Source: an uncultured Elusimicrobia bacterium (GTDB lineage Bacteria > Elusimicrobiota > Elusimicrobia > FEN-1173). Taken from it: a stretch of DNA of 64,000 nucleotides. A program made the translations under genes and the position numbers. Each line of letters opens with the position of its first letter. Position 1 is the stretch's first letter. The stretch lies in contig CAZAEL010000002.1 of the NCBI GenBank assembly GCA_964484135.1, forward strand, positions 4,700 through 68,699, in the 5' to 3' direction. Below, piece after piece: positions 40,653-58,276 of the stretch. A model generated the notes under the pieces. The model did not search any database, had not been told where the DNA came from, and was given only the letters and a program-made list of their open reading frames with translations.

Positions 40653-41440
40653 CCGTCAAGGCCCTGGTCCTGCGGTGCGCCGGCACCAACTGCGACGAGG
40701 AAACGGTCTGGGCTTTGAAGGAGGCCGGCGCGGAGCCGGAGCGCGTCCACGTGAACCTGTTCATGGGGGGGCGAAAGGACCTGGGGGACTACGACCTGCT
40801 GGTCATCCCCGGCGGGTTCTCCTACGGCGACGACATCGCCTCCGGCAAGGTCCTGGCCAACCAGCTCTTGTACCGGTTGCGGGAGCCCCTGGAAAAATTC
40901 GTGCTGGCGCGGAAACCCGTCATCGGCATCTGCAACGGTTTTCAAGTCCTGGTCAAATGCGGCCTCCTGCCGGGGCTGGGGGGGTGGGACCCCCGGCTCA
41001 GCGTGACCCTCACGGACAACGACTCCGGCAAGTTCGAGTGCCGGTGGACCTTCCTCAAGGTGGCCAACCGGCGCTGCCTCTTCACCCGCGGCATGCCCGA
41101 AGTGTTCCCTCTGCCCGTGGCCCACGGGGAGGGCAAGTTCGTGCCGGAGTCGGATAAGCTTTATCAGAAACTGCTCAAGAACGGCCAGGTGGTGTTCCGT
41201 TACGTGGACCCCAAGGGCCGGTCCGGCGGGTATCCCTGGAACCCCAACGGCTCCTACCGGGACGTGGCCGGCCTCTGCAACGAGGCCGGGAACGTGCTGG
41301 GCCTCATGCCCCATCCGGAGCGGTACGCCTTCACCCACCAGCACTCCCATTGGACGCGGCTGAAGCCCCTGCCGGAGCAGGGCGTGGGCCTGCAGATTTT
41401 CAAGAACGCGGCGCGGTACGCCGCCCAGGTGAGGAACTGA
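40649..41440 (+). CDS. purQ: Phosphoribosylformylglycinamidine synthase I (glutaminase)
   Basis: VKALVLRCAGTNCDEET...LVIPGGFSYGDD...IGICNGFQVL...HPE. Confidence 0.88.
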   Translation: MTVKALVLRCAGTNCDEETVWALKEAGAEPERVHVNLFMGGRKDLGDYDLLVIPGGFSYGDDIASGKVLANQLLYRLREPLEKFVLARKPVIGICNGFQVLVKCGLLPGLGGWDPRLSVTLTDNDSGKFECRWTFLKVANRRCLFTRGMPEVFPLPVAHGEGKFVPESDKLYQKLLKNGQVVFRYVDPKGRSGGYPWNPNGSYRDVAGLCNEAGNVLGLMPHPERYAFTHQHSHWTRLKPLPEQGVGLQIFKNAARYAAQVRN

Positions 41441-42894
41441 TGACCCAAGGTCTTGCCGAATCTCCCGTGACGATCTCCGGCCCCCGGGGCCTGTACCTCC
41501 AGAACAAGCCGCCGTCGGATTCCCTGCGCGAGGACTGCGGGGTGTTCGGCATCTACAACCACGCGGAAGCGGCCCGGATGGCCTATTTGGGGCTTCACCA
41601 GCTCCAGCACCGGGGCCAGGAGTCCGCGGGGATCGTGACCACCGACGGAAGGCGTTTCTATTCCCACGTCAGCATGGGCCTGGTGGCGGACGTGTTCCGG
41701 CGGCGGACCCTGGACAACCTCAAGGGCCGCACGGCCATCGGCCACGTGCGGTACGGCACGGCCGGCGTGTCGTCCCTGGCCAACGCCCAGCCCCTGGTGG
41801 TCACGGCCGCCCGGGGGCCCCTGGCCCTGGCGCACAACGGCAACCTCACCAACGCCCACCTGCTCCGCCGCCAGCTGGAAAGGCAGGGCTCCATCTTCCA
41901 GACGTCCGCGGACAGCGAGGTGGTCCTGCACCTCATCGCCAAGTCCGCGGCGCGGGACATGGTGTCCGCCTTCCAGGACGCCTTCAGCCAGGTGTACGGC
42001 GCCTATTCCATCCTTTTGCTCACGCCGGAGACGATGTACGCGGTGCGGGACCCTTGGGGCGTGCGGCCCCTGCACATCGGCAAGCTCAACGGGTCCTACG
42101 TGGTGGCCTCGGAGACCTGCGCTTTCGACATCGTGGGGGCGAAGCTGGTGCGGGAGGTGAAACCGGGGGAGATCGCGGCCATCGATGGACGCGGCGTCCG
42201 CACCGTGGCCAACCTGGGCTCCTCCCCCAAGAAGGCCCACTGCGTGTTCGAGTTCGTGTACTTTTCCCGGCCCGACAGCCAGATCTTCGGCCAGAGCGTG
42301 TACCAGGTGCGCCGGGCCCTGGGAAAACAGCTGGCGCGGGAGTCGCCGGCCAGGGCGGACATGGTGGTCGCGGTGCCGGACTCCGCCACCTGCGCGGCCG
42401 TGGGGTTTTCCGAGCAGTCCGGCATCCCCCTGGAGGTGGGGCTCATCCGCAGCCACTACGTGGGCCGCACCTTCATCGAACCCAGGCAGTCCATCCGGGA
42501 CTTCGGCGCCCGCATGAAGCTGAGCGTGGTGCCCGAGGCGGTGCGGGGGAAACGGATCGTGCTCGTGGACGATTCCATCGTGCGCGGCACCACCAGCCGC
42601 AAGCTGGTGCGCATGATCCGCCGGGCCGGCGCCCGGGAGATCCACATGCGCATCTCCTCCCCGCCCATCCTGGGCCCCTGCTTCTACGGCATCGACACGC
42701 CGGAGCGCAAGGAGCTCATCGGCGCCCGGCTTTCGGTGGACAAGATCCGCGATTATCTGAAGGCCGACAGCCTCAAGTATTTAAGTCTGGAAGGCATGCT
42801 CAAGGCCGCGGGCAAGGACCCGGCGGACTTCTGTACCGCCTGCTTCACGGACAAATACCCCATCCCCGTCCGCTTCAACGGCGGCGCGAAATGA
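41440..42894 (+). CDS. purF: Amidophosphoribosyltransferase
   Basis: CGVFGIY (N-terminal nucleophile Cys after propeptide), DSIVRGTT, C-terminal Fe-S cysteines. Confidence 0.9.
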   Translation: MTQGLAESPVTISGPRGLYLQNKPPSDSLREDCGVFGIYNHAEAARMAYLGLHQLQHRGQESAGIVTTDGRRFYSHVSMGLVADVFRRRTLDNLKGRTAIGHVRYGTAGVSSLANAQPLVVTAARGPLALAHNGNLTNAHLLRRQLERQGSIFQTSADSEVVLHLIAKSAARDMVSAFQDAFSQVYGAYSILLLTPETMYAVRDPWGVRPLHIGKLNGSYVVASETCAFDIVGAKLVREVKPGEIAAIDGRGVRTVANLGSSPKKAHCVFEFVYFSRPDSQIFGQSVYQVRRALGKQLARESPARADMVVAVPDSATCAAVGFSEQSGIPLEVGLIRSHYVGRTFIEPRQSIRDFGARMKLSVVPEAVRGKRIVLVDDSIVRGTTSRKLVRMIRRAGAREIHMRISSPPILGPCFYGIDTPERKELIGARLSVDKIRDYLKADSLKYLSLEGMLKAAGKDPADFCTACFTDKYPIPVRFNGGAK

Positions 42895-42956
42895 TCCCAC
42901 CACCTGCCTCGGAACCACTGGTTCCGCCTTTGGCGGAAAGGCAGGTGGTGGGATGA
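42891..42956 (+). repeat. Palindromic bridging element copy 1 (ATGATCCCACCACCTGCC...GGCAGGTGGTGGGATGA) encoding mini-[24 protein letters not shown]
   Basis: 15-bp perfect outer inverted repeat. Inner hairpins GGAACCACTGGTTCC and CGCCTTTGGCG. The mini-ORF ATG overlaps the purF TGA (ATGA) and its TGA overlaps the purD ATG. Confidence 0.7.
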
Positions 42957-44257
42957 ACGTCCTGGTCATTGGTTCCGGAGGCCGCGAGCACGCCCTGACC
43001 TGGGCGCTGAAAAGGAGCCCGTCGGTGAAGGGCCTCTGGTGCGCGCCGGGCAACCCGGGCATGGCGTCCCTGGCCCAATGCGTTCCCTTGGACCCGGCGC
43101 GGCACGAGGACGTGCTGGCCTTCGCCCGGGAGAAAGAAATCGGCCTGGCCGTGATCGGGCCGGAGGCGCCCCTGGTGGACGGCCTGTCGGACGCGCTGCG
43201 GCGGGCCGGCGTCCGCGTGTTCGGCCCGGACCGGGCCGCGGCGCGGCTGGAGGGCAGCAAGATCTTCGCCAAGAAGTTCATGAAAACGCACCGCATCCCC
43301 ACCGCGGACTTCGCCGGCTTTTCGCGGGCCGGGGAGGCCGCGGACTTCGTGAAGTCCGCACGCTGGCCGTCCTCCTGGCGGGTGGTGAAGGCGGACGGGT
43401 TGGCCGCGGGCAAGGGCGTCATGGTCTGCCCGGACCGGGACGCGGTCCTGGAGGCGCTGGACGCGGTCCTGGGGAAAAAGGCCTTCGGCTCGGCGGGCAA
43501 CGAGGCCGTGCTGGAGGAAACCCTGGAGGGGGAGGAGCTGAGCGTCATGGCGCTCTGCGACGGCCGGACCCTCCTGCCGCTCGTCCCGTCCCAGGACCAC
43601 AAGCGGGTCTTCGACGACGACAAGGGGCCCAACACCGGCGGCATGGGCGCGTACGCGCCGGTCCCCCAGGTGTCCGGCGCCCTCTGGGAACGGATCGAAC
43701 GGGAGGTTTTTTCACCCTTCCTCCAGGGGCTGGCCGCGGAGAAGCTGGACTATGCCGGCGTCATCTATTTCGGCCTCATGCTGACGCGGGAAGGCCCCAA
43801 GGTCCTGGAGTTCAACGTGCGGTTCGGCGACCCCGAGACCCAGGTGGTGGTGCCGCTCATCGAGAACGATTGGGCGGAGCTGATGGCCGCCGCGGCGGAG
43901 AAACGCCTGGACCGCGTTTCCCTGAAAAAAAGCCGGGGCGCGGCCCTCTGCGTGGTCCTGGCCTCCGGCGGGTACCCGGGGGCCTTTGAAAAAGGCAAGG
44001 CCATCGAAGGCCTGGAGTCCCTGGCCGGACAAAAGGACGTCCTGGTGTTCCACGCCGGGACCGCTCGCCCGGACCCCGCTGGCCCGGTCCGGACCGCGGG
44101 CGGTCGGGTGCTGGCCGTCACCGCTTTGGCGGCGGACCTGGAGGCGGCCCGCCGCCGGGTCTATGAGGCGGTGGGGAACATCCGTTTCGAAGGGGCCCAT
44201 CACCGCCGGGACATCGGCGCCCGGGCCCTTGGACGCGCCGGCACCGCGGCCCGCTGA
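42953..44257 (+). CDS. purD: Phosphoribosylamine-glycine ligase
   Basis: MNVLVIGSGGREHALTWAL...ATP-grasp; 434 aa. Confidence 0.92.
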   Translation: MNVLVIGSGGREHALTWALKRSPSVKGLWCAPGNPGMASLAQCVPLDPARHEDVLAFAREKEIGLAVIGPEAPLVDGLSDALRRAGVRVFGPDRAAARLEGSKIFAKKFMKTHRIPTADFAGFSRAGEAADFVKSARWPSSWRVVKADGLAAGKGVMVCPDRDAVLEALDAVLGKKAFGSAGNEAVLEETLEGEELSVMALCDGRTLLPLVPSQDHKRVFDDDKGPNTGGMGAYAPVPQVSGALWERIEREVFSPFLQGLAAEKLDYAGVIYFGLMLTREGPKVLEFNVRFGDPETQVVVPLIENDWAELMAAAAEKRLDRVSLKKSRGAALCVVLASGGYPGAFEKGKAIEGLESLAGQKDVLVFHAGTARPDPAGPVRTAGGRVLAVTALAADLEAARRRVYEAVGNIRFEGAHHRRDIGARALGRAGTAAR

Positions 44258-44328
44258 CCGTTTTTTTCCCGCCCAAGCCGTTCCGTTCCCGCTCCAAATT
44301 TGGTTTAATAGGGAGACTCCTCAACCTT

Positions 44329-44343
44329 AACTGAGAGGTTCTG
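44329..44343 (+). promoter_or_regulatory. Candidate PyrR-binding loop (AACUGAGAGGUUCUG) in the pyrR leader; stem AACCU/AGGUU around it
   Basis: CNGAGAGGYU core resembles the conserved PyrR binding-loop motif (UCCNGAGAGGCU); located 15 nt upstream of the pyrR GTG. Confidence 0.25.
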
Positions 44344-44357
44344 AAAGAAAAACCTCC

Positions 44358-44918
44358 GTGACCCCTCCCAAGAAGAAGATCCTCACCCAAACGCAGGTCC
44401 GTTCCGCCATTGAAAAGCTGTCCAAGGGAATTTTCAAGAGGGCGACCGAGCCCAAGGACCAATGGGTGTTGGTGGGCATCCAGCGCCGCGGCGTGCCCCT
44501 GGCCAAGCGCCTGGGGGAGCTCCTGCGGGACCTGGGCGCGCCCGCCCTGCCCGTGGGCACCATGGACATCACCTTCTACCGGGACGACGTGGACGAAGTC
44601 TCCGTCCAGCCCGTGGTCCACGACACCGACATTTCCTTCGACCTGACCGACAAGGTGGTGTTCCTGGTGGACGACGTCCTGTACACCGGGCGCACCATCC
44701 GCTGCGCCCTGGACTCCCTCATGGATTTCGGCCGGCCCAAAAAGGTGTACCTGGTGGTGCTGGTGGACCGGGGCCACCGGGAGCTGCCCATCCAGGCGGA
44801 CTTCGCGGGCGAGACCGTCACCACCCGCGCCCAGGAGCGCGTGGAGGTGCACTTGGAGGAGGTGGACGGCGAGGACGCGGTGTGGGTCGCGTCGGCCCGC
44901 AAGGAGGCGGTGGGATGA
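44358..44918 (+). CDS. pyrR: Bifunctional pyrimidine operon regulator / uracil phosphoribosyltransferase PyrR; GTG start
   Basis: KRLGELL...[19 protein letters not shown] (PRPP-binding motif). Confidence 0.88.
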
Positions 44919-44980
44919 TCCCATCACCTGCTTCGGAACCGCTGGTTCCGCCTTCGGCGGAAAAACAGGTGATGAGATGA
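44915..44980 (+). repeat. Palindromic bridging element copy 2 (ATGATCCCATCACCTGC...ACAGGTGATGAGATGA) encoding mini-[24 protein letters not shown]
   Basis: Same architecture as copy 1; the mini-ORF ATG overlaps the pyrR TGA and its TGA overlaps the pyrB ATG (44977). Confidence 0.7.
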
Positions 44981-45966
44981 AGGACCTGCTGGGCCTGGAA
45001 TCCCTGTCCCGCCGCCAGATCGAGACCATCCTCGACATGGCGCGGCCCATGAAGTCCCTGTTCACCCGCTCCATCAAAAAGGTCCCGGCCCTGCGCGGCA
45101 AGACCGTGGCCCTGGTTTTCTTCGAGGCCTCCACCCGCACCCGCAGCTCCTTCGAACTGGCGGCCAAGCGCCTCTCCGCCGACACCCTCAACATCGCCAT
45201 GGCCACCAGCTCCGTCACCAAGGGCGAGTCCCTGATTGACACCGTCAAGACCCTGGAAGCCATGAAGGTGGATTTCCTGGTCCTGCGGCATTCCGCCTCC
45301 GGCTCCGCGGACCTGGTGGCCAAGGCCGTGAAAGCCCGGGTCATCAACGCCGGGGACGGCACCCACGAGCACCCCACGCAGGGCCTCCTCGACATGTTCA
45401 CCATCCTGGAAAAGAAAAAACGGATCGAAGGACTGCACGTGGTGATCCTGGGGGACATCCTCCACTCTCGGGTGGCGCGTTCCAACCTCTGGGGCCTCAC
45501 GAAATTGGGCGCCCGCGTCACCCTTTGCGGCCCGGCCACCCTCATCCCGCCGGGCCTGCGGGAAACGTTCGGGTCCAACGTGCGCGTGTCCTACCGCCTG
45601 GAGGAGGCGCTGGAGGGGGCGGACATCATCAACGTGCTCCGGCTCCAGCGGGAGCGGCAGGAGGGCCACTTCTTCCCGAGCCTGCGGGAATACACGGAGT
45701 TCTACGGCCTCAACGCCGACCGCCTGCGCCTGGCCAAGCCGGATTGCCTGGTCCTGCACCCCGGCCCCATGAACCGGGGGATCGAGATTTCCTCCGAAGT
45801 GGCGGACGGCCCCCGCTCCATGATCCTGGAGCAGGTCACCAACGGCATCGCGGTCCGCATGGCGGTGCTGTACCTCTTCTCCGGCCCCGCCGGGTTCGCG
45901 GCGGAAAGGCCGGACGCCAAGCGGGGCCGCCGGGCCGCGGAAGCCTCTTTGAAGGAGTTGTCGTGA
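44977..45966 (+). CDS. pyrB: Aspartate carbamoyltransferase catalytic subunit
   Basis: [21 protein letters not shown] motifs. Confidence 0.92.
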
Positions 45967-47291
45967 GCCTCCCCTCCAAAAAAACCGAGACCAAGAAGGC
46001 GGACGTGCTCCTCATCCGGGGCGGCCGCGTGGTGGACCCGGCCAACAACCGGGACGGGGAGATGGACGTCCTGGTGGAGGGGGAAAAGATCGCGCGCGTC
46101 GGACGCGGCGTGAACGCGCCCGCCGGGGCCCTGGTGCTGGAGGCCAAGGGGCTCATCGTGGCGCCGGGCCTGGTGGACATGCACGTGCATTTGCGGGAGC
46201 CGGGCCACGAAGACGCGGAGACCATCGAGTCCGGCACGCGGGCCGCGGCCGCGGGCGGCGTCACCAGCGTGGCGGCCATGCCCAACACCGACCCGCCCAT
46301 GGACAACGTGTCCGGCATCCGATTCGTGCTGCGCCGGGCCGCGGAGCAGGGCAGCGTCCGGGTCTGGCCCATCGGCACCGTCACCCGCGGCCGGGCCGGG
46401 GAATCCCTGTCCGAGATCGGCGCCATGGCCCGGGCGGGCTGCGTGGCCATCACGGACGACGGCGCCTGCGTCTCCAGCAGCCGGCTCCTCCGCCTGGCCC
46501 TGGAATACGCCAAGGTGTTCGACCTGCCCGTGATCGAGCACGCGGAGGACAAGTCCCTCATGGCCGACGGGGTCATGAACGAAAGCCCCCTGGCCACCCG
46601 GCTGGGGTACAAGGGCATCCCTCGGCAGGCGGAGTCCATCGCCGTGGCGCGGGACATCGCCCTGGCGGAGCTCACCGGCGCCCGGCTCCACCTGGCCCAC
46701 GTGTCCACGCGGGAATCCGTGGCCCTGGTGCGGGAGGCCAAGAAGCGCGGGACCCGGGTCACGGCCGAGGTCACGCCGCACCATTTCACCCTGACGGAGG
46801 ACGCGGTGACCCAGTACGGCGCCAACGCCAAGATGAACCCGCCGCTCCGCACCGCGGAGGACCGGGAGGCCCTCCTGGCGGGGTTGGCGGACGGGACCAT
46901 CGACGTCATCGCCACGGACCACGCGCCGCACACCCGCGCGGCCAAGGAACAGGAATTTTCCGCCGCGCCCTTCGGCGTCATCGGCCTGGAGACCCTGCTT
47001 CCGCTCGCCATCACCCAGCTGATCGAGAAGGGGTTGCTTTCCTGGCCGGAGGCGGTCAAACGCCTGTCCCTCCACCCGGCCAGAATCCTGGGGCTCCCCG
47101 TGGGGCACCTCAGCGAAGGCGCGCCCGCGGACGTGGTGCTCATCGATCCCCGCGAGGAACGGAAGCTCACCTCTTTCAGCAGCAAGAGCCAAAACTCCCC
47201 GTTCCTGGGTTGGACCCTCCGCGGGTTTCCGCAGGCGGTCCTGGTGGGCGGCAAGGTGGTCCTCCGGCGGGACGTCCTCAGGACGGTGTAA
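45963..47291 (+). CDS. pyrC: Dihydroorotase (GTG start overlapping the pyrB stop)
   Basis: [10 protein letters not shown]...DHAPH motifs; 442 aa. Confidence 0.88.
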
Positions 47292-48382
47292 CCATTATCT
47301 ACCGGCGGTGGGTCCGCCCCCTTCTTTTTTCGCTGCCCCCTGAAACCGCGCACCACTGGGCCGTCAACCTCCTCAAGCTCTGTTCGCCCTTTCCCCTGTC
47401 CCTGTGCAGGCCCCTTTTCCGGGTGGAGGACCCCGCCCTGCGCGTCACTCTCGGCGACGGGCCGGATCGGTTGACGTTCCCCAACCCCGTCGGGCTCGCG
47501 GCCGGTTTCGACAAGAACGCCGAGGCCCTTCCGGGGTTTGAGGCCCTGGGCTTCGGGTTCTTGGAGGGGGGGACGCTCACGCCCCGGCCCCAGCCCGGCA
47601 ATCCCCGGCCCCGCGTCTTCCGTTTTCCGGAGCAGGAGGCCCTGGTCAACCGGATGGGCTTCAACAACGACGGGGCGGCCCGGGCCGCGGAACGGTTTTC
47701 CCGAGGACTCAAACTGGGCGTGCCCATCGGCTTCAACATCGGCAAGAACAAGGACACGCCCCTGGAGGACGCGGCCCGGGATTACCTGGCCTGCCACGGG
47801 GCCCTGTTCGACCGGGCGGACTTCTTCGTGGTGAACGTCAGCTCGCCCAACACGCCGGGGCTGCGGGCGCTCCAGTCGCCGGCCCATCTGGAGCCCCTGC
47901 TCAAGGCGCTTCGGGAACAGAACGAACGGCTGGCGCGCGAAAGGGGCGGAAAGAAACCCCTCCTCTTCGTGAAAATTTCGCCGGACGAGGAGCCGGAGGA
48001 GGCCATCGTGGAGGCGGCGGCGCGGGCGGGGCTGGCCGGCGTCGTGGCCACCAACACCACCCGCTCCCGGGAAGGCCTGCCGCCCTCGGCGCCGGCGGAG
48101 GGGGGCTTGAGCGGCCGTCCCCTGCGGTCCCGGTCCACGGAAACGGTGCGGCGGCTTTTCCGCGCGGCCAAGGGACGGCTCGCCGTCGTCGGTGTGGGCG
48201 GGATTTTCTCCGCCGAAGACGCGTACGAAAAGATCCTGGCCGGCGCCTCCCTGGTGGAGGTGTACACGGGGTTCATCTATGAGGGGCCCGGCCTGGCGCG
48301 GCGCATCAACCGGGGGCTCCTGAGCCTCCTGAAGCGGGACGGTTTCGCGTCCGTGCGGGAAGCGGTGGGCAAAGGTGTTTAG
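47210..48382 (+). CDS. pyrD: Dihydroorotate dehydrogenase, class 2 (quinone); start uncertain (only in-frame start is TTG 47210, overlapping pyrC by 82 nt; conserved N-terminus begins near 47294)
   Basis: [26 protein letters not shown] aligns with E. coli PyrD N-terminus [34 protein letters not shown] and NTPGLR motifs. Confidence 0.8.
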   Translation: [390 protein letters not shown]

Positions 48383-48535
48383 AATTCATCCGGAAACCTT
48401 ACTCGGCGGCGAAAATTCGGATTTTGTGCCGAGCCGAAGCGGGCTGAGGCGAGCATACCCTCTGCGGTATGTAAGCCGAGGACCGCAAAGGCGCAGGCCA
48501 AAAGCCGAATTTGCAGCCCGAAAGGAGGTTTTCGG

Positions 48536-49609
48536 ATGAGTTCTAGCCAATCGGCGCGGTTCGGGCGGGCATGGCGGCGGGTTTTCTTCCTGCTGGGTTC
48601 TCTTGTCGCGGCCCTCTTTCTGGTGGAGGCCTGTTGCCGGATCACCAAGGCCGATATGAAGGCCCTCTGGCCGATTCTTTACAAGGAATTGTGGTCCCGA
48701 CAGGGCGAAACGAGCTTGGCCAGGCCGTCTTCCCATCCGCGCCGTATTTATGAGCTGGTTCCCAACACGGATATCCGCCGCGGCAATTGCCTGCACCCCG
48801 ATGAGACGAAGTATGCGTCGGTCCGCTTCCGGATCAACGGCCTGGGGTTCCGGGGGGAAGAGCGGGCCGCTGAAAAGCCCCGAGGGGTTTACCGGATCGT
48901 GGTCTTCGGGGGGTCCAACACCTTTGGCACGTCGGTGAGCGACGAAGACGCCTATCCCGCCCTCCTGGAGGCCGCGCTGAACAAAAAGCGCCCGGGACGG
49001 TTCCAGGTGTGGAACGCGGGGTTGCCGGCGTACATGATGTCTCAAAACGCGGCCTATGCCAGGGAGGTCGTCTCCTTGTACGATCCCGATCTCTTGATCT
49101 TTCAGGACACCAACCGGGGACGCAGGGCGTTCCTCGGCGACGACGCCGACTTCGGTCGGCATTTTGAGGGGAACAACGAGTTGTTTCTGGAGAACCTGCC
49201 CTTCGCCCCCTTTTACGACACGCCCTTTGAATCATTGCACAAGCGGCTCGTGGGCTGGAGCGCATCGTATCGCCTGGCCGTCGCGTGCCTCAACAAACTC
49301 ACGGTTCGTTTCATCCTGCGGCACACCGGCCGCCCCATGATCCAGGAGTCTCTGTGGGCCAGATACGGCGATGACATCAGTCGGCGGGATTTGCGCGCGT
49401 TCGTCCGCGATTTCCCCCGCTTGAAAACGGTCATGTTCTACCTTGACGGTCCTGAGCCGGGATATGACTTCTTGCCGCACATTTCCCTTCGGGACGCTCT
49501 GGCGGACAAGCCCCCCGCTTTTCACGACATTCATCCGCCTTCTTACGTCTATGGGTTTTATGCCGACGTGCTTGTCGAAAAATTGACGGAAATGGGGATG
49601 CTGGGTTAA
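48536..49609 (+). CDS. Membrane-anchored SGNH/GDSL-type hydrolase family protein
   Basis: N-terminal TM helix; block-I-like motif VVFGGSNTFG; AAAGGAGG RBS; inserted between pyrD and pyrF. Confidence 0.5.
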   Translation: MSSSQSARFGRAWRRVFFLLGSLVAALFLVEACCRITKADMKALWPILYKELWSRQGETSLARPSSHPRRIYELVPNTDIRRGNCLHPDETKYASVRFRINGLGFRGEERAAEKPRGVYRIVVFGGSNTFGTSVSDEDAYPALLEAALNKKRPGRFQVWNAGLPAYMMSQNAAYAREVVSLYDPDLLIFQDTNRGRRAFLGDDADFGRHFEGNNELFLENLPFAPFYDTPFESLHKRLVGWSASYRLAVACLNKLTVRFILRHTGRPMIQESLWARYGDDISRRDLRAFVRDFPRLKTVMFYLDGPEPGYDFLPHISLRDALADKPPAFHDIHPPSYVYGFYADVLVEKLTEMGMLG

Positions 49610-49614
49610 GACGC

Positions 49615-50301
49615 ATGAACAAAAAAGGATTGATACTCGCGCTGGACGTTCCTTCTTCCCGGGCGGCCAAAAACGTGGTGGAAAGGGTCGGGAAGGCGGC
49701 GGATTTCTACAAGGTGGCGCCGTCCCTGTGCTTCCAGGACCCCGCCATCGTGAAATGGCTCAGGGCCCGTCGGAAAAAAGTGTTCCTGGACTTTAAATGG
49801 TATGATATCCCTTCCCAGGTGAAGCGGTCGGTGGAGGCGGCGGGGCGCATGGGCGTGGCCGCCTGCACCATCCACGCGGGCGCGGGCGCGTCCGTCATGA
49901 AGGCCGCCCTGTCGGCCCGCCCCAGGCCCAAGGTCTGGGCCGTGACGGTCCTGACCAGCTTCTCCGGCGCGGACCTCCGGAAGGTGGGCGTGACCGCGAC
50001 CCCGCAGGAGCAAGTCCTGCGCCTGGCCCGGCTGGCCCAGTCCTGCGGCGTGGACGGGCTGGTCTGTTCGCCCAACGAGGCGGCTTTCTTGAGGAAGAGC
50101 GGGATCCGGGTGACGCTGGTCACTCCCGGCATCCGTTTCGGGGAGATGGGCGGCGCCAGCAAGGACCAGAAGCGCACCGCCGGCCCGCTCAAGGCCTGGG
50201 AGGCGGGGGCGGATTACATCGTGGTGGGCCGCAGCGTCCTGGAGGCCAGGGACCCGGCCAAGGCCGTCCGGCGGATCCTGGCCCTGAGGGACGAAAGATA
50301 A
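49615..50301 (+). CDS. pyrF: Orotidine 5'-phosphate decarboxylase
   Basis: LILALDV, DFKWYDIP motifs. Confidence 0.9.
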   Translation: MNKKGLILALDVPSSRAAKNVVERVGKAADFYKVAPSLCFQDPAIVKWLRARRKKVFLDFKWYDIPSQVKRSVEAAGRMGVAACTIHAGAGASVMKAALSARPRPKVWAVTVLTSFSGADLRKVGVTATPQEQVLRLARLAQSCGVDGLVCSPNEAAFLRKSGIRVTLVTPGIRFGEMGGASKDQKRTAGPLKAWEAGADYIVVGRSVLEARDPAKAVRRILALRDER

Positions 50302-50302
50302 C

Positions 50303-50833
50303 ATGGGCGACCCGGCGCTGGCCAAAAAAATTTTCCAGGCCTGCAACCTGAAGGGCCGGTTCCGGCTCCGTTCCGGCAAAACCAGCGACGAGTACTTCGA
50401 CAAATACCTTTTCGAGTCCAGGCCCGAGCTGTTGGAGGCGGTGGCGGAGAGCCTGGCGCGGCTCATCCCCGCCGGGACCGAGGTCCTGGCCGGCCTGGAG
50501 ATGGGCGGGATCCCCGTGGCCGCGGCCCTGTCCTTAAAGACCCGCCTGCCCGTGATCTTCGTGCGCAAGAAGGCCAAGGAGTACGGCACTTGCAAGCTGG
50601 CCGAAGGGATCGGTTTCAAGGGCAAGCGCGTGGCCGTGGTGGAGGACGTGGTGACCACGGGCGGGGCCATCCTGGACGGCGTGGCGGCCCTGCGGGAGCA
50701 GGGCGCCATCATTGAGCACGTGTTGTGCGTCATTGACCGGGAGTCCGGCGGTCCGGAAAAACTGTCGGAGGCGGGGTTGAAGCTCGCGCCGCTCTTTACG
50801 GCGTCGGAACTGCGCGCGGCCGCGGGGAAATAG
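50303..50833 (+). CDS. pyrE: Orotate phosphoribosyltransferase
   Basis: VAVVEDVVTTGG PRPP-binding motif; 176 aa. Confidence 0.88.
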   Translation: MGDPALAKKIFQACNLKGRFRLRSGKTSDEYFDKYLFESRPELLEAVAESLARLIPAGTEVLAGLEMGGIPVAAALSLKTRLPVIFVRKKAKEYGTCKLAEGIGFKGKRVAVVEDVVTTGGAILDGVAALREQGAIIEHVLCVIDRESGGPEKLSEAGLKLAPLFTASELRAAAGK

Positions 50834-50843
50834 AGGGGGTTTC

Positions 50844-51812
50844 ATGGCGAAGATCTGGACGTACAAAAAATCGGGGGTGGACATCGACGCGGGGGACGCG
50901 CTGGTGGACCGCATCCGCCGGCGGGTGCCTTCCATCGGGGACTTCGCCGGACTTTTCCCTTTCCCGCGCAACGGGTACAAAAAACCCTACCTGGTGGGCT
51001 GCACCGACGGCGTGGGGACCAAGCTCAAGGTCGCCCAGGAATTAAACGTCCACGACACCATCGGCATCGACCTGGTGGCCATGAACGTGAACGACCTCAT
51101 TTGCTGCGGGGCCAAGCCGCTGTTCTTCCTGGATTATTTCGCCGCGGGCAAGCTGGACGTGGACGTGGCGGACCAGGTGGTGCAAGGCATCATCCGGGGC
51201 TGCCGCGAGGCCGAGTGCGCCCTGATCGGCGGGGAGACCGCGGAGATGCCGGGCATGTACAAGCCGGGCGAGTACGATCTCGCGGGCTTCGCCGTGGGCG
51301 TGGTGGACGAGTCCGAGCGCGTGGACAACCGCCGCATCAAGGCCGGCGACGTGCTCCTGGGCCTGCCTTCCTCCGGCGTCCATTCCAACGGGTACTCCCT
51401 GGTGCGGGCCCTGTTCAAGGGCCGTGATCTGAAGACGTGGGGCAAAAAGCTCCTGGCCCCCACGCGAATTTACGTCCGGCCCGTGCGCCGGGCCCTCAAG
51501 GCCTTCCCGGGCGCGATCAAGGGCATGGCCCACATCACGGGCGGCGGGCTCCTGGAAAACGTGCCCCGGTTCCTGCCCAAAAAACTGGACGCGGCGTTCT
51601 TCCGCGCCTCCTGGCCCGTGCCCGAGGTGTTCACCGAGCTCCGGCGGCGCGGCCGGGTGGAGGAGGCGGAGATGTTCCGCACCTTCAACATGGGGCTGGG
51701 GTTGGTGCTGGCCGTGTCGCGGGAAAAGGCCGACGGCCTCCAGAAGCTCCTGGCGCCCTGTTACCGCGTGGGACGCGTGGAGCCGGGCGGACAAAAGGTC
51801 CGATTCGTTTAA
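50844..51812 (+). CDS. purM: Phosphoribosylformylglycinamidine cyclo-ligase (AIR synthetase)
   Basis: YKKSGVDIDAGD...GLVGCTDGVGTKL. Confidence 0.92.
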   Translation: MAKIWTYKKSGVDIDAGDALVDRIRRRVPSIGDFAGLFPFPRNGYKKPYLVGCTDGVGTKLKVAQELNVHDTIGIDLVAMNVNDLICCGAKPLFFLDYFAAGKLDVDVADQVVQGIIRGCREAECALIGGETAEMPGMYKPGEYDLAGFAVGVVDESERVDNRRIKAGDVLLGLPSSGVHSNGYSLVRALFKGRDLKTWGKKLLAPTRIYVRPVRRALKAFPGAIKGMAHITGGGLLENVPRFLPKKLDAAFFRASWPVPEVFTELRRRGRVEEAEMFRTFNMGLGLVLAVSREKADGLQKLLAPCYRVGRVEPGGQKVRFV

Positions 51813-51902
51813 AGTGAGAAGTGAAAAGTGGGAGGTTAAGAACTTAGAAATGATCGGTTTGGTTCAACCTCCCGCCTCTCGCCTCTCCTCTCTCAGCGGT
51901 TT

Positions 51903-52502
51903 GTGAAAGCCGGCATCGGCGTCCTGGTCTCCGGCGGCGGCTCCAACTTTCAGGCCCTGGCCGAGGCCGCCCAAAGGGGAGACATCCCGGACGCCGAGGT
52001 GAGGCTGGTGGTTTCCAACAAGCCCGGCGTGGGCGCGTTGGACCGCGCCAAGAAGCTCGGCGTGGAATCATTGGTCCTGGAGCCCAAGGACTTTTCGTCA
52101 AGGGCCGCGTACTTCGAGCGCATCGGGGAAGAGTTCGCGCGCCGCGGCGTCACTTTGATCTGCCTGGCCGGCTTCCTCCTCAAGGTGGAGCCGGAGCTGA
52201 TCCGGCGCTTCCCCGGACGCATCCTGAACATCCATCCCGCGCTCCTGCCCAAGTTCGGCGGCAAAGGCATGTGGGGACACCACGTGCACGAGGCCGTCCT
52301 GGCCGCGGGCGAGAAGGAGTCCGGCTGCACCGTCCACGTGGTGGACGAAGAGTTCGACCGGGGCCCCATTCTGTTGCAGGCCCAGGTGCCGGTCCTGCCG
52401 GGCGACACGCCCGATGCCCTGGCCGCCCGGATTTTGGTGGAAGAGCACAAGCTTTATCCCCGGGCCGTGGCCCGGGTCCTGGCCGGGACGCCGCAAAAAT
52501 GA
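51903..52502 (+). CDS. purN: Phosphoribosylglycinamide formyltransferase; GTG start
   Basis: GVLVSGGGSNFQAL...ILNIHPALLP...GCTVHVVDEEFDRGPIL. Confidence 0.88.
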   Translation: MKAGIGVLVSGGGSNFQALAEAAQRGDIPDAEVRLVVSNKPGVGALDRAKKLGVESLVLEPKDFSSRAAYFERIGEEFARRGVTLICLAGFLLKVEPELIRRFPGRILNIHPALLPKFGGKGMWGHHVHEAVLAAGEKESGCTVHVVDEEFDRGPILLQAQVPVLPGDTPDALAARILVEEHKLYPRAVARVLAGTPQK

Positions 52503-52918
52503 CCAAGACCGCTTTTGGAGGATTCCGGGCGTGCTTTGTCGTCGCGTCCGCCCTGTCTTTCGCCTCCCCCGGCGCGGCCAAGCCGTCCGGACCCCAGACC
52601 CCGTCGATCCAAAACTTTTCGGGCCCGGAGGGGAACGGGGAGCCGTTGGACCGCCAACTGGCGCGGGCCGTGGAAGAGCGGCAGGACTGCAGGGCCCGGT
52701 CCCTGCTCATGGACATGGAAACCCTGGCCCGGAAGGAGAGGCTGAAAAGATCCGACGGGCTGGAGGAGGCGCTCCTGGCGGCCCAGGGCGCGGACCTCTG
52801 TTGCATGGACTGCTGCTGCGGCAGTTCGGACGTGGCGGAGGCGGCCGAGGGGGTCATGATCCTCTTGAAAATCCCGGTCCCGGAGGGGGACGTCGCGGAG
52901 CCGGAAATCCAAGAATGA
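52499..52918 (+). CDS. Small secreted protein with C-terminal cysteine cluster (LCCMDCCCGSS)
   Basis: ATG overlaps the purN stop (ATGA); signal peptide MTKTAFGGFRACFVVASALSFASPGAA; five Cys within 8 residues. Confidence 0.5.
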   Translation: MTKTAFGGFRACFVVASALSFASPGAAKPSGPQTPSIQNFSGPEGNGEPLDRQLARAVEERQDCRARSLLMDMETLARKERLKRSDGLEEALLAAQGADLCCMDCCCGSSDVAEAAEGVMILLKIPVPEGDVAEPEIQE

Positions 52919-52971
52919 AGGACGGAACGTTTATGAACGCGAGACGGATTTTTTTCTTCAGGCGGGTGACA

Positions 52972-53040
52972 GATGATCCCATCACCTGCCTCGACTGCGG
53001 AAGCAGGCGTTTGGCCTGCAGGCAGGTGATGGGATGATCC
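52972..53040 (+). repeat. Palindromic bridging element copy 3 (GATGATCCCATCACCTGCC...GGCAGGTGATGGGATGATCC) with a different inner hairpin (GCAGGC-GTTTG-GCCTGC)
   Basis: Outer arms match copies 1 and 2; the right arm supplies the purB ATG (53034). The small ORF 52933..53034 reads through the element and ends with a TGA overlapping the purB ATG. Confidence 0.65.
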
Positions 53041-54326
53041 CCCGGTACACCCGCGAGGGCATGTCGCGCATCTGGACCGACCAGGCCCGCTGGGAGGCCA
53101 TCCTGGAGGTGGAGCTGCTGACCGCCGAGGCCCTGGCCCGCCGGGGGCTGGCGGACCGGCGCGCGGTCAAGACTCTGCGCCAAAAGGCCCGCGTGGACGT
53201 GCGCCGCATCTTGCAGATCGAGCGGACCGTCAAGCACGACGTCATCGCCTTCCTGACCCAGATCGAGGAACGGGTGGGGCCGGCGGCCAAGGCCCTGCAC
53301 CAGGGCCTCACCTCTTCGGACGTTTTGGACACGGCCCTGGCGGTCCAGATCAAGCGGGCCAACGCCCTCCTGATCGCCGGCCTCAAGGAGCTGATGGCCG
53401 TGACCCGGCGGCTGGCCCTGCGGCACCAGGACACCCTCATGATGGGCCGCACCCACGGCATCCACGCCGAGCCCATCACCTTCGGCTTCAAGGTGGCCGG
53501 GTGGCACGCGGAGCTGCGCCGCAACCTGGAGCGGCTGGAGGCCGCGGGCCGCGACGCGGCCGCGGGCAAGCTGTCCGGCGCGGTGGGGACGTTCGCCCAT
53601 CTGGACCCTTCCATCGAGGCGGAGGTCTGCCGCCGATTGGGGCTGAGCCCCGAGCCCGCCTCCACCCAGGTGGTGCCCCGGGACCGGCACGCCCACTACA
53701 TGCAGGCCCTGGCCCTGGCCGGCGCCGGGCTGGAGCGCGTGGCCACGGAACTGCGCCATCTCCAGCGCACCGAAGTTTTGGAGGCGGAGGAACCGTTCAC
53801 CAAGGGGCAGAAGGGCTCCAGCGCCATGCCGCACAAGCGCAACCCCATCGCCTCGGAGAACATCTGCGGCCTGGCCCGCTTGCTGCGGGGCTACGCCTTG
53901 TCGGCCCTGGAGAACGTGGCCCTCTGGCACGAGCGGGACATCTCCCACTCCTCGGTGGAGCGGGTGGCCCTGCCGGACGCCACCCTCCTCCTGGATTTCA
54001 TGATCCACCGGCTCAAGGGGGTGCTGGCGGACCTGCGGGTCTATCCGGACCGCATGCGGGCCAACATGGAGAAGACCTCGGAGATCGTCTGCTCCCAGCG
54101 CCTCGTCATCGCGCTGACCCGGCGGGGCCTGCCCAAACAAAAGGCGTACGAGCTGGTCCAGCGCCACGCGCAGGAGGCCTGGACAACGGGCCGCAGCTTC
54201 CGGCAGATGGCCGCCGCGGACCCGGACATCCGCTCGCGCCTGTCCGGGCCGGGCCTGGCCGCCTGTTTCGACCTGAAGCCTTTCGTGCGGAACGTCCGCC
54301 GGGTGGTGCGGCGGGCCCTGGGGTGA
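53034..54326 (+). CDS. purB: Adenylosuccinate lyase
   Basis: Fumarate-lyase signature GSSAMPHKRNP; 430 aa. Confidence 0.92.
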   Translation: MIPRYTREGMSRIWTDQARWEAILEVELLTAEALARRGLADRRAVKTLRQKARVDVRRILQIERTVKHDVIAFLTQIEERVGPAAKALHQGLTSSDVLDTALAVQIKRANALLIAGLKELMAVTRRLALRHQDTLMMGRTHGIHAEPITFGFKVAGWHAELRRNLERLEAAGRDAAAGKLSGAVGTFAHLDPSIEAEVCRRLGLSPEPASTQVVPRDRHAHYMQALALAGAGLERVATELRHLQRTEVLEAEEPFTKGQKGSSAMPHKRNPIASENICGLARLLRGYALSALENVALWHERDISHSSVERVALPDATLLLDFMIHRLKGVLADLRVYPDRMRANMEKTSEIVCSQRLVIALTRRGLPKQKAYELVQRHAQEAWTTGRSFRQMAAADPDIRSRLSGPGLAACFDLKPFVRNVRRVVRRALG

Positions 54327-54679
54327 CGGCCCGCCGGCGACGGACCGTCGCGGTGACGGGCGCCGCCCGTTTGGCGGAGGGCGCCTCCCTCAAATTTTCC
54401 TACAAAGAGCGGGGCTTCCCGGCCGAAGGGTTCCTCATCCGGAAAAACGGCCGGCTTCTGGCGTACCGCAACCGCTGCCCCCACGCGGGCAGCCCTCTGG
54501 ATTTCGGCGACAACGAGTTCTTCACGGACGACGGCCGGTTCCTCCTGTGCAAGGCCCACGGCGCGCTGTTCGAGCCGGGGGACGGCGCCTGCGCCGCCGG
54601 CCCCTGCCACGGCCGGGGCCTGGAGGCCCTGCCCGTGGTCCAACGCAAGGACGGCAAGGCGGTCATCGGCCCTTTTTAG
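54323..54679 (+). CDS. Rieske [2Fe-2S] domain protein; GTG start overlapping the purB stop
   Basis: CPHAGSPL ... CKAHGALFE (CxH ... CxxH). Confidence 0.6.
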   Translation: MTARRRRTVAVTGAARLAEGASLKFSYKERGFPAEGFLIRKNGRLLAYRNRCPHAGSPLDFGDNEFFTDDGRFLLCKAHGALFEPGDGACAAGPCHGRGLEALPVVQRKDGKAVIGPF

Positions 54680-54699
54680 ACCTTTTCGGGGGGGTCCTC

Positions 54700-55062
54700 A
54701 TGGCGAAAAAACGCATCCTTCTGGTGGAAGACCACGAGGACGTGTACGAGTTCGTGTCCCTCTTCCTGGAGGACAAGGGCTATCTGGTGGCGGTGGCCAA
54801 GGACGGCCGGGAGGGGATCGACAAGGTCAAGGAGTTCAGGCCGGACCTGGTCATCCTGGACCTGATGATGCCCCGGATGGACGGTTTCTCCGTGCTGAAG
54901 CTGCTCATGGGCATGGACGCCCCGCCCAAGGTCCTGGTGCTCTCCGCCATTCAAAAGATGGAGGGCGTGGAAGAGGCCATGCGGCTGGGCGCCAGCGGGT
55001 ACGTCACCAAGCCCGTGGAGGGCGAGCGGCTCTTGAAAAAGGTCCAGAGCCTGGTGTCTTGA
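54700..55062 (+). CDS. Single-domain (CheY-like) response regulator
   Basis: ILLVEDHEDV...DLVILDLMMPRMDG...VLVLSA...KP. Confidence 0.8.
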   Translation: MAKKRILLVEDHEDVYEFVSLFLEDKGYLVAVAKDGREGIDKVKEFRPDLVILDLMMPRMDGFSVLKLLMGMDAPPKVLVLSAIQKMEGVEEAMRLGASGYVTKPVEGERLLKKVQSLVS

Positions 55063-56079: not shown

Positions 56080-56156
56080 GGTGGGTATAGCTCAGCGGTT
56101 AGAGCGTTCGGCTGTGGCCCGAAAGGTCGGGGGTTCAAATCCCCTTACCCACCCCA
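56080..56156 (+). tRNA. tRNA-His (anticodon GTG) with genomically encoded G-1 and 3' CCA
   Basis: Manual cloverleaf: acceptor GTGGGTA/TACCCAC; D-arm GCTC-AGCGGTTA-GAGC; anticodon arm TTCGG-CTGTGGC-CCGAA (GTG at positions 34-36); T-arm GGGGG-TTCAAAT-CCCCT; discriminator C73 pairs with G-1 at 56080. Confidence 0.9.
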
Positions 56157-57899: not shown

Positions 57900-58276
57900 T
57901 GGGGCGCTCCCGTCCGGTTCAGCATTTGTTCGACGGATCGGAGGAGCCGGAGGTGGTCGAAGGGTTTGGTCAGGTATTCATCGGCCCCGCTCTCCCATCC
58001 GCGCAGCTCTTCGATCTGCTGGGTCCGGGCCGTCAGCATGATCACGGGGATGCCCCGGGTTTCCCGGTCCTGGCGGAGCTGGCGGCAGACCTGCCAGCCG
58101 TCCATCCGCGGCATCATCACGTCGAGGATGATGAGGGACGGTTTCTGTTCGCCGGCCAGGCGCAGGCCGTCCATCCCGTTTTCCGCCTCGATGACGCGGT
58201 GGCCGGCCTGTTCAAGGCGGATCCGGACGACCTCGCGGTTCTGCGGGTCGTCGTCGATGACGAGTATCTGTTTCAT
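57896..58276 (-). CDS. Single-domain response regulator (126 aa)
   Basis: MKQILVIDDDPQNREV...LIILDVMMPRMDG...TKP; the start overlaps the upstream histidine kinase stop. Confidence 0.75.
   Translation of the reverse strand: MKQILVIDDDPQNREVVRIRLEQAGHRVIEAENGMDGLRLAGEQKPSLIILDVMMPRMDGWQVCRQLRQDRETRGIPVIMLTARTQQIEELRGWESGADEYLTKPFDHLRLLRSVEQMLNRTGAPQ

Follow-up and report, generated by a model that had tools for sequence, protein, structure and literature searches.

What is a palindrome doing exactly across the stop and start codons of neighbouring operon genes? The question is raised by three short palindromes in a window of DNA (the whole stretch that was analysed, 64,000 nucleotides, positions 4,700 to 68,699 of contig CAZAEL010000002.1 in assembly GCA_964484135.1) from an uncultured Elusimicrobia bacterium. 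They stand at the purF/purD and pyrR/pyrB junctions and at the start of purB. A sequence-only reading of the window had taken them for copies of an element which bridges purine and pyrimidine genes by means of a mini open reading frame (mini-ORF). We are fairly confident that the element is a very small non-autonomous DNA transposon, or MITE (for miniature inverted-repeat transposable element), which generates a 3-bp target-site duplication, has inserted into ATGA overlaps and start codons, and would relay ribosomes across itself. The best match of the PurD protein of the window was 68% identical and the named matches belonged to Elusimicrobia, which places the window near this group.

Results

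Palindromes of 58-59 bp were found at all three positions named in the sequence-only reading. The arm pattern (18 nt, at most 3 mismatches) had six matches in the window versus 0.03 in shuffled sequences. Copies 1 and 3 account for two matches each (one per arm) and copy 2 for one (its left arm); the sixth is an arm-like site at 44903-44920. Copy 1 (42895-42953; no strand is assigned to the copies) has a 59-bp core, TCCCACCACCTG...CAGGTGGTGGGA, with two inner hairpins. Copy 2 (44919-44977), also with a 59-bp core, has decayed arms and is 86% identical to copy 1, and copy 3 (52977-53034) has a 58-bp core with an interior unlike the others. When the three copies were aligned, the arms ATGATCCCAYCACCTGC and CAGGTGRTGRGATGA were invariant. 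The terminal inverted repeats comprise 12 invariant nucleotides (TCCCAYCACCTG / CAGGTGRTGGGA), the stems reach 15-17 bp, and the core TCCCAYCACCTG...CAGGTGRTGGGA is bracketed by a 3-bp direct repeat, which is TGA in the window copies. Reading the flanks across copies set the limits of the element at TCCC...GGGA. Its length across copies is 45-82 bp and its coding content is confined to an incidental ORF of 18-26 codons, with no transposase gene. The predicted RNA folds had energies of -43.9 kcal/mol (copy 1) and -47.1 kcal/mol (copy 3), both with z of about -7.5, and of -27.9 kcal/mol (z = -2.6) for the decayed copy 2 with its mismatched arms. As had been proposed from the sequence alone, the hairpin encloses the ribosome-binding site and the ATG of the downstream gene.

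At the first junction (plus strand, as are all features of the three sites), purF (41350-42894; Pfam PurF, start codon uncertain) is the upstream partner of copy 1 and its stop codon is the left TGA duplication (42892-42894). A42891 together with TG is the ancestral ATG of purD and now starts mini-ORF 1 (42891-42956, 21 codons plus stop), the stop of which is the right TGA duplication (42954-42956). The element's own A42953 together with TG forms the present ATG of purD (42953-44257; Pfam, GARS_N aligned from residue 1). The second junction is arranged in the same way: the left TGA (44916-44918) is the stop of pyrR (44358-44918; Pfam) and overlaps the ancestral pyrB ATG at 44915, mini-ORF 2 (44915-44980) again has 21 codons plus stop, and its stop, the right TGA (44978-44980), overlaps the present ATG of pyrB at 44977 (gene 44977-45966; Pfam, OTCace_N aligned from residue 2). 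The ATG/TGA geometry described earlier for these two copies is exact. Because PurD and PyrB match position 1 of their Pfam profiles at residues 1-2, the ATGs supplied by the right arms are the true starts, in agreement with the sequence-only reading.

At purB, A52973 with the TG of the left duplication (52974-52976) is the ancestral ATG, directly preceded by the ancestral ribosome-binding site GGCGGGTGA. The present ATG (53034-53036) overlaps the right duplication (53035-53037), so that here, too, the right arm provides the start of the gene (53034-54326; Pfam Lyase_1 with residue 9 at profile position 9, N-terminus MIPRYTR...). For the small ORF of this copy, the earlier description needs correcting. 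Mini-ORF 3 (52973-53029) has 18 codons and its TGA (53027-53029) lies inside the right arm GGTGATGGG, 4 nt upstream of the purB ATG at 53034. The 207-aa read-through ORF (52414-53037) is probably spurious since it has no Pfam match and overlaps purN. A promoter and terminator scan 5' of copy 3 found neither.

Empty sites were sought on the contigs of three PurD homologues (L039, L040 and L042; loci from other genomes are cited by such numbers). The purF/purD junction is a bare 4-base ATGA overlap without the element in all three, and pyrR/pyrB in L039 is a bare GTGA overlap, also without the element. Removal of copy 1 and one TGA from the window yields gcgaaATGAacgtcctg, which is collinear with gccgATGAaagtcctg of L040, and the N-termini of PurD agree between the window and L040 (MNVLVIGSGGREHAL vs MKVLVLGGGGREHAL). 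When the element and one TGA are removed at pyrR/pyrB, an ATGA overlap results, where L039 has GTGA. In view of these empty sites, the ATGA at both ends of the element goes back to one ancestral ATGA overlap whose TGA was duplicated on insertion; the A at the left stems from that overlap and the A at the right from the element, as its final base. The double ATGA, which had been read as a purpose-built bridge, is a by-product of transposition into ATGA. The ancestral ribosome-binding region of pyrB (44903-44920, GGAGGCGGTGGGATGATC), which encodes the C-terminus of PyrR (...EAVG*), resembles the right arm at 13 of 17 positions. This likeness could be due to chance, to a preference for end-like targets or to a relic of an older copy.

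Genomes (one representative per species) were scanned with the pattern TCCCAYCACCTG-N20-50-CAGGTGRTGRGA and metagenomes with a slightly broader two-arm pattern; the window's own genome lies outside the scanned collections. The genome scan gave 38 loci, nearly all from Elusimicrobia, Omnitrophica or Planctomycetia assemblies, and the element was present in 93 metagenomic stretches. In the pooled set of 116 distinct, non-redundant copies, 75 have identical 3-bp flanks: TGA/TCA in 53, TAA in 6, TTA in 5, CCA in 5, TCG in 3, and CTA, CAA and TAG in one each. TNA-type duplications thus make up 64 of the 75. One genome has near-identical copies in unrelated places (L015, 5' of trmD, and L018, 5' of a pyrroline-5-carboxylate (P5C) reductase gene), which differ at 2 of 59 positions, and several copies per 8-kb locus occur in L033, L063 and L117. 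A MITE is defined by inverted repeats, a target duplication of fixed length, small size and presence in multiple copies. The earlier description as a reusable MITE-like element and not a repetitive extragenic palindrome (REP) is borne out by the 3-bp duplications, the empty sites and the copies within genes.

The other 41 copies have no direct-repeat flanks; many have flanks extending the palindrome or adjoin another arm, and dimers, nesting of copies or a longer relative of the element may account for them. Tandem arrays of two to three elements spaced by TGA/TCA alone were seen in L117 (4615-4959), L063 (1358-1702), L077 (877-1129) and L023 (6862-7102). Composites of about 157 bp, with two abutting elements in a single TGA/TCA duplication, were found in L054 (3271-3427), L094 (4511-4668), L062 (1148-1305), L019 (1276-1433) and L076 (10748-10904). 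In an Omnitrophica assembly (MHFT01, L033), a minus-strand GvpL/F gas-vesicle operon carries the element at three successive junctions (2294-2409, 3171-3295 and 4399-4461). Two of these are a longer variant of 116-125 bp with arms TCCCACCACCTCCTT, a perfect Shine-Dalgarno complement, and the upstream gene ends with ...EVVG* in an apparent captured solo arm (3299-3311). A gene for 3-deoxy-D-arabino-heptulosonate 7-phosphate (DAHP) synthase in L007 (462-1445; also L029, 24-1007) has elements at both of its junctions.

The feature is real and not random. A long ORF starts exactly at the terminal A plus TG in 37 of the 53 distinct TGA-type copies, and in 26 of these 37 start-site copies a long upstream ORF also ends at the left TGA. 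Pfam alignments beginning at profile position 1-2 within residues 1-8 were obtained for 9 of the 17 ORFs checked at other loci, and in the reconstructed insertion targets the ribosome-binding site, at -12 to -8, is rich in G. The base 5' of TGA in the start-site copies (A 29, G 4, T 4, C 0) resembles start-codon usage; C precedes the duplication in only one of all 53 TGA-type copies. By insertion, an ancestral GTG or TTG start was turned into ATG in eight of the 37. Sites of the junction type make up 1.35% of the background ATGA sites at the same loci and 11 of the 28 scored insertions preceded by A (ATGA). We estimate the excess of junctions over neutral ATGA sites at roughly 7-fold or more, with a crude denominator of neutral sites. 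Target preference by itself explains neither this excess nor the asymmetry at the base before the duplication (A, G or T but not C, with TTGA rare).

The sequence-only reading had named many copies scattered without regard to start codons as grounds for its own refutation. Some copies are indeed of this kind: about 30% of the TGA-type and most of the non-TGA copies are intergenic or lie in-frame within genes. In-frame inserts of 21-25 residues were found in UvrA (L009, 3628-3699, e.g. IIPPPDGSLKMTSKTNAYGVSSGGGIK) and a GlgA-like synthase (L035, 1526-1585), and further ones in a molybdopterin oxidoreductase (L038, 2218-2277), a radical S-adenosylmethionine (SAM) protein (L130, 8031-8093) and a membrane protein (L028, 3303-3362). 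The element plus its duplication is a multiple of 3 in all five. Host genes elsewhere are functionally unrelated (GHMP kinase, glycosyltransferase family 2 (GT2), epimerase, TrmD, ATP synthase delta, P5C reductase, homoserine dehydrogenase, GcvP). The association with pur and pyr genes, which had been part of the first description, reflects the local gene content of the window. A pathway-specific regulator is ruled out by the diversity of the host genes.

The right arm has the features of a ribosome-binding site. In copy 1, the Shine-Dalgarno-like arm CAGGTGGTGGG (42941-42952, plus strand) is directly 5' of the purD ATG, with equivalents at 44965-44976 and 53022-53033. Its AGGTGRT is complementary to the 3' tail of 16S rRNA (AUCACCU), and its distance from the ATG corresponds to 7 nt behind a GGAGG core. 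The duplex energies of the arms with GAUCACCUCCUUA were -14.6 (copy 1), -9.9 (the decayed copy 2) and -13.9 kcal/mol (copy 3). The 20-mers of the window had a mean of -5.5 kcal/mol, with 2.8% at -12 or below, and intact arms (-12 to -15 kcal/mol) belong to the top 3% or so of these. The ancestral ribosome-binding sites had energies of -5.0 (purD), -14.3 (pyrB) and -11.3 kcal/mol (purB). In a sister variant at an Omnitrophica locus, the arms are TCCCACCACCTCCTT, which reads as AAGGAGGTGGTGGGA followed by TG, a textbook Shine-Dalgarno sequence with -18.2 kcal/mol. The complementarity, spacing and energies suggest that the arm works as a ribosome-binding site.

Frame and length of the element are biased at start sites. 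Interior stops in the frame of the mini-ORF occur in 2 of the 37 start-site copies; the two remaining frames have them in 12 and 15 of the 37 (Fisher p = 4e-4). A length of 2 mod 3, with which the stop of the mini-ORF falls on the new ATG, was found in 25 of the 37 start-site copies (47, 53, 59, 62, 65, 68, 71 and 74 bp) versus 9 of the 38 other duplication-bearing copies (chi-square p = 1e-4), 27 of which have a length of 0 mod 3. Counted per cluster of interior sequences, lengths of 2 mod 3 make up 17 of 25 start-site and 4 of 20 other clusters (p = 0.002). The recurrent residues of the mini-ORF peptide are those encoded by the arms (MIP[P/S]P...QV[V/M]G); the interior differs wholly between subfamilies and is found in both orientations at start sites. 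Of the two roles that had been considered for the peptide, by-product of the palindrome and functional product, the latter is rejected, as residues recur only where the arms encode them.

The Pfam identities of the genes considered in the window are PurF, PurD, PyrR, PyrB, PurM, PurN and PurB. A small ORF (52499-52918, about 139 aa, no Pfam match) with a signal-peptide-like N-terminus, MTKTAFGGFRACFVVASALSFASPGAA, overlaps the purN stop at its start through an ATGA (52499-52502); no element is present there, and hence not all available sites are occupied. In a scan of the window with Rfam covariance models, tRNA-His alone reached the gathering score and the element matched no family. The tRNA-His (GTG anticodon, 56081-56156) is the sole RNA gene detected in the window. 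Repeats between 54839-54896 and the opposite-strand segments 58098-58141, 58442-58526 and 58799-58883 encode a conserved part of response-regulator receiver domains (Response_reg, 54547-55059); they belong to paralogous genes and are not mobile repeats.

Discussion

The analysis shows that the element is a transposon, with target-site duplications and empty sites, that copies stand exactly on authentic start codons, and that length and frame are biased. How translation proceeds across an inserted copy can be proposed from this geometry. Genes coupled by an ATGA overlap are translated by termination followed by re-initiation, and ribosome transit opens a stem hiding the next ribosome-binding site. 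The element inserted into the TGA of the ancestral ATGA overlaps purF/purD and pyrR/pyrB and, at purB, into the ATGA with which the gene started. The left TGA keeps the stop of purF or pyrR intact, and the ancestral ribosome-binding site and start would drive a short ORF into the element. At the right end, CAGGTGRTGGGA followed by TGA, the terminal A with TG makes the new in-frame ATG of the downstream gene, behind the Shine-Dalgarno-like arm (AGGTGRT-GGG-A) at normal spacing, and both neighbouring genes are preserved. Both this ribosome-binding site and the new ATG would be hidden by the long hairpin. A ribosome stopping at the end of purF would already be inside the left arm and could restart at the overlapping ancestral ATG; other ribosomes would initiate at this ATG themselves. 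Translation of the mini-ORF would then melt the stem, and the ribosome would terminate on or beside the new ATG and re-initiate there. Such a relay, as put forward in the sequence-only reading, is plausible, and the frame and length statistics support it; we infer that it operates.

Several points weigh against this interpretation. In non-start copies, too, A tends to precede and T to follow the duplication (ATGAT), and the association with start codons could therefore partly be plain target preference. The search pattern demanded perfect arms, so that start-codon copies under selection may be over-sampled relative to decayed intergenic ones, and the frame statistics are corrected for shared ancestry in part only. 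At the stand-alone purB gene, a stem of -47 kcal/mol starts 4 nt after the ancestral ATG, which would hinder fresh initiation and make the relay weaker at sites of this type. The DNA flanking the pattern matches (up to about 15 kb per locus) yielded neither a full-length insertion sequence nor a transposase with such ends, and the TCCC ends are unlike the sole IS1031-group end compared, that of ISLrh (GAACCTG..., GAACCTGTCTAGTATCT).

The IS1031 group of the IS5 family is characterized by TNA preference and an exclusive 3-bp duplication (PMC12016507). The 3-bp duplication at TNA in 64 of 75 copies suggests that a transposase of this group mobilises the element. Arm pairs 100-4000 nt apart with matching flanks enclosed host genes (DAHP synthase, a Rex-like repressor, GvpL/F, ribosomal proteins) or proved to be tandem or dimeric MITEs. 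The transposase probably prefers AT-N-AT, as indicated by non-start A-TGA-T copies without a ribosome-binding site (L005, L053, L064 and L069) and by TAA and TTA copies with A...T flanks.

A further step would be to regard the whole family as adapted to start codons, with an inverted repeat that is the reverse complement of Shine-Dalgarno sequence, spacer and A, and with a MIPPP leader handing ribosomes on. Either end would then rebuild a ribosome-binding site and ATG after insertion at N-TGA, and polyproline pausing dependent on elongation factor P (EF-P) might aid the opening of the hairpin. If so, the element would be addictive to its host, because imprecise loss destroys the start site. 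We put this forward tentatively, as a possibility which we would not lean on.

It seems unlikely that the element is instead a passive MITE that is simply tolerated, its positions arising from AT(G/C)AT preference, loss of disruptive insertions and slow loss at start codons, with the mini-ORF and hairpin idle and the downstream gene initiating independently. Much of the distribution would fit: non-start copies occupy ATGAT-like sites without a ribosome-binding site (e.g. L005, L053), and each insertion recreates ATGAT, which leads to the tandem arrays in L023, L063, L077 and L117. In-frame gene inserts of multiple-of-3 length could have passed the same survivorship filter, and either orientation of the interior occurs at start sites (L001, copies 1 and 2). 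However, the bias to 2 mod 3 and the depletion of stops in the mini-ORF frame imply continued translation from the ancestral start and a role for the reading frame. Independent initiation is unlikely with a stem of about -44 kcal/mol covering the ribosome-binding site and ATG, and the junction enrichment of roughly 7-fold or more over the estimated neutral ATGA sites is not accounted for by mere tolerance.

Homing to start codons, in which the transposase would recognise a ribosome-binding site plus ATGA resembling its own end (AGGTGRTGGGA followed by TGA), would make the placement a matter of integration specificity and not of selection. The pyrB target GGAGGCGGTGGGATGA, matching the arm at 13 of 17 positions and caught by the arm search, is what this mechanism would predict, as are tandem insertions adjoining existing arms and the G-rich stretch at -12 to -8 in the reconstructed targets. 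Yet a G-rich signal is expected at every genuine start codon, and the ribosome-binding site at the purF/purD target is weak (-5.0 kcal/mol). Clear non-start insertions (L005, L012) lack such a sequence, and the TAA, TTA and CCA duplications together with the within-gene copies mean that a ribosome-binding site is not required. We consider homing decidedly unlikely.

Adoption by the host as a regulatory cassette is very doubtful. The hairpin and a MIPPP polyproline-stalling leader would tune downstream translation, e.g. to EF-P activity or temperature. Read in the frame of the mini-ORF, the common arm variant does give M-I-P-P-P, the hairpin sequesters both the ribosome-binding site and the ATG, and a translated leader would agree with the bias in frame and length. 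Against this, PPP is dictated by the inverted repeat and a frequent T variant gives PSP, the host genes have no function in common, relatives have bare ATGA, and the interior is not conserved. It is almost inconceivable that the copies are extragenic palindromes of the REP type or bacterial interspersed mosaic elements (BIME) spread by a REP-associated tyrosine transposase (RAYT), or chance palindromes: they are small, GC-rich, palindromic and inside operons, but a REP/RAYT element is ruled out by the 3-bp target duplications and contradicted by the empty sites, the GTAG/CTAC head is absent with ends of TCCC...GGGA instead, some copies are inside genes, and five of the six arm-pattern matches (0.03 expected per window) are arms of the three copies.

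In full-text searches and MITE reviews, we found neither this element nor any MITE that rebuilds a start codon. It represents a new MITE family, unusual for the translation signals in its termini and for its preference for stop/start overlaps. Like the MITEs mobilised by the IS1031 group, it has terminal inverted repeats, lacks a transposase gene, is present in many copies per genome and shows a 3-bp TNA duplication, which is exclusive in that group (PMC12016507). It is much smaller than these (45-82 bp), and its termini double as ribosome-binding site and A of ATG. The Neisseria REP2 repeats, compared by description only, also have a promoter, and inverted repeats and target duplications are not described for them, whereas the element studied here builds ATG from its own last base and duplicated target bases. 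Correia elements of Neisseria are likewise MITEs co-transcribed with their neighbours and forming mRNA hairpins which affect expression. However, they have a TA duplication, inverted repeats of about 26 bp and a length of about 100-155 bp, in contrast to the 3-bp TNA duplication and other ends found here, and their action is through promoters, integration host factor (IHF) sites and cleavage by RNase III, with no start codon being rebuilt.

The Rickettsia palindromic elements (RPE) are palindromic repeats lying in-frame inside protein genes and adding a short peptide (PMC10969869). The in-frame inserts in L009, L028, L035, L038 and L130 are similar to these in behaviour only. RPEs are about 100-150 bp long and confined to Rickettsia, and start-codon occupancy and TNA duplications are not known for them. 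Chunjie, a MITE from Geobacter uraniireducens, lies, according to a title cited in PMC10969869 and PMC3184786, in an operon and leaves the structure of that operon undisturbed. Chunjie differs in being 178-235 bp long and AT-rich, with 21-bp inverted repeats and 9-bp duplications. In comparison with the usual ATGA coupling and melting of leader hairpins, the arrangement at purF/purD and pyrR/pyrB would be delivered by a mobile element and chained twice, from gene to mini-ORF to gene.

A selfish element can sit in the stop/start overlap, where the base pairs of an operon are most sensitive, and do little harm, since it carries replacement translation signals in its ends. Attention to it should be paid in the annotation of uncultured phyla (Elusimicrobia, Omnitrophica, Planctomycetia), where gene callers may misplace starts, call spurious small ORFs and overlook inserts, 21-25 residues long, in UvrA and other conserved proteins. 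If the relay is true, the family would offer a natural, portable test case for termination-reinitiation and for the opening of hairpins by ribosomes. If the family is also adapted to start codons, it would constitute a mobile, self-contained translational relay.

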